Shown here: positions 13,932-15,562 of the stretch, piece by piece
How positions within the stretch are numbered: position 1 is the stretch's first letter
Layout: every line of letters starts with the position of its first letter
Virus genome (UHGV): UHGV-0038615
From: a virus
Strand: one strand, 5' to 3'
DNA: 24,779 bases
Program-made: the position numbers and the translations under genes
The notes under the pieces: model-generated
The model's database searches: none
What the model was told of the DNA's origin: nothing
What the model saw: the letters and a program-made list of their open reading frames with translations, nothing else

Positions 13932-14244
13932 TTTGAATTAGCTACGAGTTGATCTGTCAACTACTGATAGTGGGGTGTTGATATTTGATGAACATCTAAA
14001 AGCGAAATGGTGGAAATCGAATTCTGCAATGCATATCAAGAATTTCATGATCAGATAATTTATTGGTTATGGATGAGGTCAACGCGTGGTCATTGTATGA
14101 TATTGATTTCATGTGGTATTTTTTATTTTCATGCCTAATGGGCAAAATCGATATTAAAGATGCTTATCTCTCTTGTCAAACTGGTTCAGTCAGTAGAAAA
14201 TATGGGTAAAAGTAAACTCTTTGATTTTAGATAGGGAAATGTTT

Positions 14245-14964
14245 ATGAGTGAAATCTCTTTCGTATTTGCGCGATCATTTATTGATGCTTCACCATTCAT
14301 TCTTGCAATGGCAATAGCTATAGCTATTCTGCGTGGTCCTGTGGTGAAATTCATTTCACGGAACTTACTTGATTCAGGCAAGGACAGGTATAATGCGGAA
14401 ACTAAAGATAATAACACAAAGAAGAATGGTAACACTGAAAGCCAACCAATGGCAGATGAGAAAATAAAATTTCATATTCGTAAAATATTGCTAAACGAGA
14501 GTGGTCAAAAATATTTTGATGCGTACAGAGAAAATGTCGAAAGTTTAATCGAGAAAAGACAAAAGGAATTAGCCAATTACGCTTTAACAAGCGTGTTTTC
14601 TGAAAATAAAATTGAAGAGGCGATCACTGAATCATTGCATGATACAGTGGAGGACACTACCAAAAAATTAATTAGAGAGAGTGAGCAATTCAAGATTTTA
14701 GAGAAGGAAACAATTGAAAAGTTAAATTTAATAAAAATATCATCATTTTTGGAGCATCTGGAGAAAGAATATGATGCAACTCGAAGTACAAAGGCTCTGA
14801 TGAGTAACATGTTTATTTTGGTGAATGTTTTTTATTTTTTTTGGCCTGCTGGGTTTTCTTATATTTGGGCAAAACATAATAACCACACCGTCTATTTATT
14901 TAGCATTATCGTTTTCCTATATTGGGTTAGGTGCGTTTGTTGTTTACATGATAAAGTTTTGTAA
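14245..14964 (+). CDS. AT-rich cargo ORF: membrane-anchored protein with long charged/coiled-coil-like region; likely the 5' part of a gene disrupted at a T6-A-T8 tract
   Basis: GGGA RBS before ATG 14245; N-terminal hydrophobic helix FILAMAIAIAIL; K/E-rich central region; reading frame changes at 14828-14842. Confidence 0.45.
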   Translation: MSEISFVFARSFIDASPFILAMAIAIAILRGPVVKFISRNLLDSGKDRYNAETKDNNTKKNGNTESQPMADEKIKFHIRKILLNESGQKYFDAYRENVESLIEKRQKELANYALTSVFSENKIEEAITESLHDTVEDTTKKLIRESEQFKILEKETIEKLNLIKISSFLEHLEKEYDATRSTKALMSNMFILVNVFYFFWPAGFSYIWAKHNNHTVYLFSIIVFLYWVRCVCCLHDKVL

Positions 14965-15232
14965 CGCACGAAGTTTAACGTTACTTTCTCTCCGGGAAGA
15001 TTTTTTAAAACGAGAACAGATAAGCAACATGGCTACCAAAATGGTAGAGTTAGGGGCGAGTGAACATCATGTGGCTTTGTTGCAATTGATGAATTCCAGT
15101 ATCGCTACAAAAGAACAAAAAATTAACCATCCTTATGAAATGCTTTTGTATGGAATCAAAGATTCGAATATCATGTTCAAGGGTGGGAAATTTGAAATAA
15201 AAAAAGAGACTTCAGGGAAGTCAAATCCATAA
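14825..15232 (+). CDS. AT-rich cargo ORF: two predicted TM helices plus a small soluble C-terminal domain; likely the 3' part of the same frameshifted gene
   Basis: Starts inside the T-tract in the +1 frame relative to the upstream ORF; hydrophobic FFIFFGLLGFLIFG and LALSFSYIGLGAFVVYMI; followed by a hairpin terminator. Confidence 0.4.
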   Translation: MFFIFFGLLGFLIFGQNIITTPSIYLALSFSYIGLGAFVVYMIKFCNARSLTLLSLREDFLKREQISNMATKMVELGASEHHVALLQLMNSSIATKEQKINHPYEMLLYGIKDSNIMFKGGKFEIKKETSGKSNP

Positions 15233-15245
15233 GGCAACATGCGCT

Positions 15246-15273
15246 AGGCAGAAATATACCTCTGCCTCTTTTG
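15246..15273 (+). terminator. Rho-independent terminator candidate (aggcaga-loop-tctgcct then CTTTT)
   Basis: 7-bp inverted repeat with 8-nt loop followed by a T-rich run, 14 nt after the stop of the cargo ORF. Confidence 0.45.
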
Positions 15274-15562
15274 GAAAACAGATAAACTGCTCACTGTAAT
15301 AGTAAATATGTCTCAAGCAAAAATGGATATGTTTACGTGAGCGCCCGCTTTTGGCGTTGAGTGTGTTAAAAATCTGACCAAAAACTCATTGAGTAAGGTA
15401 ATACAAAATCTAAAATCGAACTACTGGCTAGAGAAATCGAATTTTTCGTAGGATGCCAATTTCGGCTCAGCTTTGGCCAATACTGTGTTCAAAAACATTG
15501 TCACGCAGCTAAGGAACAACGCTGGATGTTCGACTAGGTTTCAATCAGCCCCTCAAAGGAGG

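Follow-up and report, generated by a model that had tools for sequence, protein, structure and literature searches.

What occupies the AT-rich DNA between the tail gene S and the baseplate gene V of virus genome UHGV-0038615, and what could it do for the phage or for its host? The stretch analysed, a P2-like prophage sequence of 24,779 nucleotides, is referred to below as the window. The S-V insert is a swappable cargo cassette (a moron) that holds one gene, is autonomously mobile and is under selection. The intact product of this gene, of 328 amino acids (aa), is predicted to be a three-pass inner-membrane protein with its N-terminus outside and, as judged by profile searches, belongs to a small unnamed and uncharacterised family. 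Our best guess, for which we regard the chances as evenly balanced, is that the intact protein acts as an anti-phage factor at the inner membrane.

A composition profile revealed a fall in the GC (G plus C) fraction to 0.30-0.38 from around position 13880 to 15500, versus 0.53-0.62 on either side, and the 1,732 bp between the stop codon of S (13931) and the ATG of V (15664) showed 36.5% GC compared to 54.1% and 57.8% in the flanks. The AT-rich DNA noticed between both genes in a preliminary description of the window was thus confirmed, although the limits given there (13932-15540) were too narrow, as the left edge of the cargo lies inside S at about 13878 and its right edge is a conserved block beginning at 15598, not at 15540. 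The edges of the slot were set by alignment of nine S-V regions, in which homology between alleles restarts 66 bp 5′ of the V ATG. As delimited by composition and by this restart, the exchangeable AT-rich cassette covers about 1.72 kb (13878..15597) in the 'orf30' slot. Its left anchor is S itself (13491..13931, plus strand), a P2-type gene for virion morphogenesis or tail completion according to the RefSeq annotation of a 99.9% identical prophage. Its right anchor is the block common to all the aligned cargo alleles (15598..15663, plus strand), which corresponds to the pV activator (Ogr) site and late promoter of P2; in the P2 RefSeq record, the pV activator site is placed at -69..-42 and transcription of the V operon starts at the start of V. 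The gene for baseplate assembly protein V follows on the plus strand (15664..16305), as supported by the list of open reading frames (ORFs) and the RefSeq annotation. Activator sites for Ogr/Delta have the form TGT-N12-ACA; a match to this pattern at 15563-15580 was rejected as an Ogr site, given that the right end of the cassette, where it is located around 35 bp 5′ of the pV block, is not conserved, and that about one chance match to such a six-base pattern is expected in this much sequence.

The whole cassette block was 99.9% identical in three further loci (L001, L017 and L022), and its first 1.4 kb or so (13881-15276) was 86% identical in another one (L018). When the S proteins were aligned, identity between alleles ended after '...ERQLLGF', with a GC fraction of 0.27-0.40 from 13850 on, and the last 18 codons or so of the window's S were AT-rich and allele-specific. 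Across cargo alleles, the C-terminal 17-25 residues of S were encoded by AT-rich DNA and differed from one allele to another (window 13878-13931; L011-L016, L003 and L004). Therefore, an exchange of cassettes also exchanges the AT-rich 3′ end of S, and each cassette provides this essential virion gene with a C-terminal tail of its own.

Within the cassette, two overlapping ORFs are found on the plus strand in different frames (14221..14964 and 14825..15232). Both are parts of the one real gene that the cassette holds (14245-15232), split in the window by an additional T in a run of eight (T8, 14835..14842, plus strand). A run of seven (T7) was present in all eight other copies, corresponding to five complete Escherichia coli genomes and three IMG/VR contigs (two of them 99.9% and the third 86% identical); in the five complete genomes, the block was 99.9% identical and one base shorter, T7 versus T8 being the only difference. 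With T7, the two ORFs are joined into the intact 328-aa protein, which is the RefSeq hypothetical protein WP_001290067.1, and the RefSeq start of this entry is the equivalent ATG. From the translation and the comparison with intact copies, codons 1-199 (14245..14841, plus strand) are predicted to encode a first transmembrane segment (TM1), a cytoplasmic helical region and the first half of TM2, and codons 200-328 plus the stop (14843..15232, plus strand), out of frame in the window, the rest of TM2, TM3 and a conserved cytoplasmic tail that carries R242, E251, E290, H295-P-Y-E298 and SNIMFKGGK. The predicted product of the window consists of 199 native and 40 aberrant residues, with its stop at 14962-14964, and it lacks the second half of TM2, TM3, the whole conserved tail and all the invariant residues. 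Two small upstream ORFs (14007-14138 and 14063-14209) were rejected as genes, as they are not conserved in the 86% identical relative, and no RNA family was found by Rfam in 13700-15800; thus, the cassette contains a single gene.

The state of this copy was analysed by comparison with the intact prophage of E. coli WP2-S18-ESBL-07, which aligned to the window (about 21 kb) as three colinear blocks with five substitutions and at least 99.95% identity per block. A deletion of 4,036 bp at window 11657-11667, with an imperfect microhomology of about 11 bp at its junction, has taken the scaffold, major capsid, small terminase and head-completion genes, together with parts of the terminase ATPase gene and of X. 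Another one of 3,808 bp at 17844/17845, with a 2-bp overlap, has cut into gene I, taken out the genes for the tail fibre and for its assembly, and left only a minor part of the sheath gene. Therefore, the prophage is defective, a state that the preliminary description had not noticed. The change in the T-run was the only small indel, leaving aside a pair of alignment gaps that border the first junction, and from the 16 homopolymers of at least seven bases in the window only the run at 14835 differed from the reference, which argues that the assembly is not generally error-prone. Alternatively, T8 could be an error made in sequencing or assembly, or it could reflect reversible slippage, the gene being functionally intact in the source organism. 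A single-base difference in a homopolymer is the commonest type of error, T7 is what the eight other copies show, and outside the run the gene does not differ from the reference. Nevertheless, we consider this alternative unlikely in view of the alignment, where no other small indel (junction gaps aside) and no other homopolymer was altered, and of the decay of the prophage through two microhomology-flanked deletions of essential head and tail genes; that the frameshift is a real inactivating mutation appears fairly probable. As the prophage is defective, with two deletions of around 4 kb, the frameshifted allele is probably a pseudogene and not a working effector, and a frameshifted allele in a defective prophage makes the biological impact of the window's own copy small.

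The gene is preceded by putative expression signals of its own. A ribosome-binding site, AGGGAA (14233..14238, plus strand), was read from the sequence 7 nt 5′ of the ATG at 14245, and a promoter scan detected a sigma-70-like element, TTGTCA-17-GAAAAT (14173..14201, plus strand; 9/12 matches), about 45 nt 5′ of the start codon. Around this promoter-like element, some 34 nt were about 91% identical between the window and a Pectobacterium chromosomal copy of the gene, despite the near saturation of the synonymous sites of the gene. The promoter block was also present in L018 and the TTGTCA was retained in L003 and L019, the element being conserved across three contexts. At the 3′ side, a fold on the plus strand (15246..15274) gave a terminator-like hairpin of 7 bp (AGGCAGA/TCTGCCT) with an 8-nt loop, followed by CTTTTGG, which is kept in L018; it is weak, with a folding energy of -12.7 kcal/mol (z = -1.6) for the surrounding 53 nt, and it was not among the calls of the terminator scan. 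Of the two signals attributed earlier to the insert, the ribosome-binding site stood and the terminator is reduced to this weak hairpin. After S, the window has a 6-bp hairpin without T-run, at the place where P2 has an annotated O-operon terminator.

The conservation of the protein shows that the gene is a real one. A word-indexed search revealed 23 close clusters, 58-99% identical and 314-333 aa long, three of them with a source name (Pectobacterium and Enterobacter). An exhaustive profile search of 1.84 billion representatives detected 88 clusters (at 50% identity) with an expectation value E <= 0.001, 74 of them at E <= 1e-10, most of them of 290-360 aa and with a common part mainly at profile positions ~166-320; a profile search of a 5.8-billion-protein set, with a word prefilter, added only one new protein. 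In 81 members, F231, R242, E251, E290, H295, P296 and E298 were invariant, N188, F190, Y225, Y234, Y297, S307, G313 and G314 were nearly so, and the C-terminal part followed the signature RE(Q/K)xxxHPYExxLKGIxxSNIxFKGGK. The ratio of nonsynonymous to synonymous changes (dN/dS) was compared between both halves of the gene in the three pairs with unsaturated synonymous sites, giving 0.205 for the N-terminal and 0.028 for the C-terminal half in L001-L018, 0.158 and 0.033 in L001-L002, and 0.88 and 0.058 in L003-L019. Therefore, the gene is real and selected, with a fast-evolving half and a strongly constrained one. The interrupted ORF of the window, and the spurious ORFs to which AT-rich DNA gives rise, could have pointed to non-coding filler and to no gene at all, but this is refuted by dN/dS values of 0.03-0.2 with saturated synonymous sites, and the conservation of length and architecture across the 23 close and the 88 wider clusters leaves it practically no credit.

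Regarding the architecture of the protein, the preliminary description had read from the sequence an N-terminal transmembrane helix, a long K/E-rich coiled-coil-like middle, two further transmembrane helices and a small C-terminal domain, and both hydropathy and structure prediction agreed with it. Kyte-Doolittle analysis located hydrophobic segments at about 11-37, 187-209 and 215-237, with the helical K/E-rich middle between TM1 and TM2 and some 90 aa C-terminal to TM3. The K plus R residues, counted in flanking segments of up to 15 residues (seven in the loop), had means over the 81 members of 0.84 before TM1, 3.16 after TM1, 2.6 before TM2, 0.44 in the TM2-TM3 loop and 2.72 after TM3. Thus, this family-wide positive-inside pattern predicts a periplasmic N-terminus, with the middle and C-terminal regions in the cytoplasm. 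A 550-aa metagenomic member (P0077) carries an N-terminal Peptidase_M15_2/DUF882 domain (4e-49) ahead of TM1, which could be a genuine fusion or a merge made by gene calling; taken as periplasmic, this domain fits the N-out orientation. An AlphaFold2 (AF2) model built with the 81 sequences reached a mean predicted local distance difference test score (pLDDT) of 74.6 and a predicted template modelling score (pTM) of 0.54, with a core (130-290) at pLDDT 85-93. In this model, two long helices (147-210 and 215-269) form a membrane hairpin that reaches into the cytoplasm, and the last 25 residues remain below pLDDT 50. An earlier model, from just 21 close sequences, scored pLDDT 61 and was discarded as poor.

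The search for known relatives agreed with the earlier statement that the protein belongs to no named family. No significant match was found for the 328-aa protein in Pfam, PADLOC, PHROGs or NCBIfam, and profile searches of the PDB, with the full length and with the C-terminal module, returned just noise due to coiled-coil and transmembrane composition, including the best match, MotB (E = 0.002 on the transmembrane segment and linker), which was discarded as such. PADLOC-DB v2.0.0 gave 0 matches for the protein and weak scattered ones in at most 4 of the 81 members; no SLATT profile was among the Pfam matches of the 81 members at E <= 0.01, and no holin, antiholin or lysis family was matched in PHROGs or Pfam. 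The Pfam family DUF6161 was matched below threshold by three of the 81 members, the best being P0029 (E = 1e-4, 22.3 bits versus a cut-off of 27), over the helix before the hairpin, the hairpin itself and the helix after it; the window protein had no DUF6161 match, and a search from P0029 aimed at DUF6161 proteins found none. These matches are below the gathering score, and a distant relationship to DUF6161 may be taken as a lead. A DUF6161 family has been listed as an antiphage candidate predicted by a language model, with mechanism not known (preprint, bioRxiv 10.1101/2025.01.08.631966). A literature search returned nothing on WP_001290067.1, nor on a defence hotspot between S and V.

Does the protein resemble membrane proteins with a known role against phages? 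Lambda RexB, P22 SieA, T4 Imm, HK97 gp15 and the SLATT domains are membrane-acting abortive-infection or exclusion proteins, or effector modules with two transmembrane helices. The 328-aa protein is similar to this group in being a prophage-carried inner-membrane protein with a predicted conserved two-helix transmembrane hairpin, flanking helices and a variable region. In contrast to them, no PADLOC or Pfam model is matched across the 81 members; the protein exceeds the classical Sie proteins in size, its gene is solitary, without the sensor or signalling partner gene of SLATT-type effectors, and its family-specific C-terminal motif HPYE...SNIxFKGGK also sets it apart.

The position of the cassette provided the next line of evidence. 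The orf30 (S-V) locus is one of three moron regions described for P2-like phages, together with the TO and Z/fun regions (PMC6823313, PMC3091744). In the P2 RefSeq record the order is S, O-operon terminator, Orf30 on the minus strand, pV activator site and V. As in P2, the locus of the window lies between S and V and is AT-rich, non-essential and different among related phages, but its cargo is unrelated: Orf30 of P2 is encoded by a 786-bp minus-strand coding sequence (261 aa), so that its earlier mention as a small ORF was just roughly right, whereas the window has the plus-strand gene for the 328-aa membrane protein. Cargos were surveyed in 56 E. coli genomes of the same phage lineage, with flanks at least 85% identical. 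The gene of the window was present in five of them, and about 30 carried a GmrSD_N/DUF262 plus RiboL-PSP HEPN pair (PADLOC NsnA 7e-80, PD-T4-2_A 1e-42). The L012 locus has a Tin homologue (PADLOC E = 2e-88), and four other loci have genes without Pfam or PADLOC match, of 597 aa (L013:2762-4555), 543 aa (L014:2495-4126, minus strand), 309 aa (L015:2028-2957, minus strand) and 398 aa (L016:2017-3213, minus strand). The S-V intergenic regions were 1,163-2,400 bp long, with unrelated cargos in either orientation, all at 33-37% GC. At least seven cargos are thus found in the slot of a single lineage, with Orf30 in P2 and nothing in P24E6b-type phages, and the comparison with related P2-like prophages corroborated that the slot is variable and its cargos are unrelated.

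The family was also found outside this lineage and outside this slot. It occupies the S-V slot of an Enterobacter P2-like prophage and, intact, that of a decayed prophage remnant of E. ludwigii; in 186-like prophages it lies directly 3′ of int, overlapping the int stop codon, and in Pectobacterium it is located in a chromosomal islet without recognisable defence neighbours. More distant members were found between a CI-like repressor gene and the integrase gene, between a Q-like gene and the small terminase gene, and in lambdoid nin regions, between DUF1367 and YbcO. In Serratia and metagenomic lambdoid prophages (L038-L042), the run consists of DUF1367, the family gene, YbcO and a KAP NTPase gene (PADLOC PDC-S20, 2e-85), one of these runs including also a gene for a TIR-TM protein (7.5e-63), and looks like a defence cluster. 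No conserved partner gene was seen in any context examined, the gene being solitary, and its GC was below that of the contig in 20 out of 20 IMG/VR loci. With a recognised moron slot, at least seven cargos and a gene that moves alone among unrelated slots, the horizontally acquired moron proposed in the preliminary description was well supported.

What would such a cassette do? It sits in the gap between the end of the O operon (S) and the Ogr-dependent pV promoter, and it would be swapped among P2-like phages by recombination in the flanks, bringing with it the alternative 3′ end of S; its parts would be its own promoter-like element, the ribosome-binding site, one ORF and the weak terminator. 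The encoded protein would begin with a short N-terminal stretch in the periplasm, followed by TM1. Some 150 aa of fast-evolving helical sequence would then lie in the cytoplasm, ahead of the nearly invariant hairpin of TM2 and TM3, and the C-terminal 90 aa or so, which finish with HPYE...SNIxFKGGK, would form a cytoplasmic tail. We infer that the protein, expressed from the prophage, could act at the inner membrane to shield the lysogen from other phages; specificity or the sensing of infection would fall to the variable N-terminal half, and the effector function to the conserved hairpin and tail. The latter might oligomerise and depolarise the membrane (abortive infection) or, alternatively, it might block a conserved membrane step of genome entry (exclusion).

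An anti-phage role, which the preliminary description had suggested in the form of superinfection exclusion or abortive infection, is put forward because a Tin homologue and the PD-T4-2/Nsn-like pair share the slot in sister prophages, and it is made plausible by the TIR-TM and KAP NTPase genes that adjoin distant relatives. The locus also resembles the P2-like defence hotspots described by Rousset et al. (2022) and Vassallo et al. (2022), which house systems such as Tin, Old, Fun and PD-T4-2, in having 1-2.4 kb of high-turnover cargo between conserved genes, although the cargo of the window has no homology to any of these systems; these hotspots have been placed at the A-Q and Z/fun loci and not at S-V (PMC9122126, PMC9519451). 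The broader proposal that the protein founds an unnamed, solitary, phage-borne anti-phage family, in which a hypervariable sensor half in the cytoplasm would be linked to an invariant effector made up of the transmembrane hairpin and the HPYE/FKGGK part, and that the S-V slot is a third P2-like defence hotspot besides A-Q and Z/fun is a tentative one, somewhat less probable than the anti-phage role as such. Several observations weigh against a defence function. The family is rare: one locus was found in 185,579 species-representative genomes, where scans of the genome collections gave none with close-family patterns and a Serratia locus with wider ones, and no match was obtained by tblastn in 50,697 phage or 72,556 plasmid records, nor by megablast against the phage and plasmid collections. 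The 81 members have no consistent Pfam, PADLOC or PHROGs match, just scattered weak ones, and the effector idea is without structural basis because the most conserved segment (303-328) was modelled at pLDDT <50. Moreover, P2 moron slots also hold non-defence cargo, as in the case of the cytolethal distending toxin and of partition genes in the cos-adjacent hotspot (PMC9122126), and without a clear terminator after S, late lytic read-through could make the gene serve the phage itself.

These last points lead to two other readings of the function. The protein could be a lysogenic-conversion or selfish membrane factor outside defence, involved in stress, colonisation or competition, or a membrane toxin that helps to keep the prophage in place. 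The variable slots of P2-like phages accommodate such cargo (PMC9122126), the gene is intact in the decayed E. ludwigii remnant, which suggests a benefit for the host, no defence model shows similarity to the protein, and the Pectobacterium islet has no recognisable defence neighbours. However, the family has no conserved partner or antitoxin gene, nor does the cassette hold a second ORF, recognised defence families appear among the alternative cargos and as neighbours of distant members, and a fast-evolving half joined to an invariant one is more typical of conflict systems, so that we assign this reading roughly half the weight of the anti-phage role. Much less probable is a function in the lytic cycle of the phage itself (in lysis timing, as an antiholin-like protein, or in exclusion during lytic growth only) through read-through from the O operon. 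The gene is indeed located just 3′ of the lysis cassette and of R/S, in the orientation of the late genes, and no convincing terminator follows S in the phage of the window. Nonetheless, the family is also found after int, between cI and int, in nin regions and in a bacterial chromosome; the other cargos of the slot lie in either orientation and most P2-like phages do not have the gene, which moreover has its own conserved promoter-like element and a product that matches no PHROG holin or lysis family.

The P2-like group counts among the commonest prophages of E. coli, and two variable loci of this group are well documented as reservoirs of anti-phage systems. The third classical moron locus, S-V, shows a similar turnover of cargo, with the Tin homologue and the PD-T4-2/Nsn-like pair, and the presence of defence cargo in the slot makes candidates for new defence genes of the other five cargo genes, that is, the one for the membrane protein and the four of 309-597 aa. 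The membrane protein is readily testable, as it is encoded by a single gene with an intact allele in five complete E. coli genomes and has clear invariant residues and halves that can be swapped.

A further variable locus of the window, the other one known from P2, lies between the replication gene A and the portal gene. It contains a gene for a 518-aa AAA/ABC-type ATPase (6593-8149; PADLOC NsnB 4e-55, PDC-M55A 7e-46, AriA 3e-31), adjoined by a gene for a 370-aa partner (8152-9264) with a weak match to PDC-M55B (2e-4), both of which probably constitute a two-gene defence system. On the 5′ side of this pair there is another gene (5520-5984), annotated by RefSeq as DUF3850 in the reference prophage.

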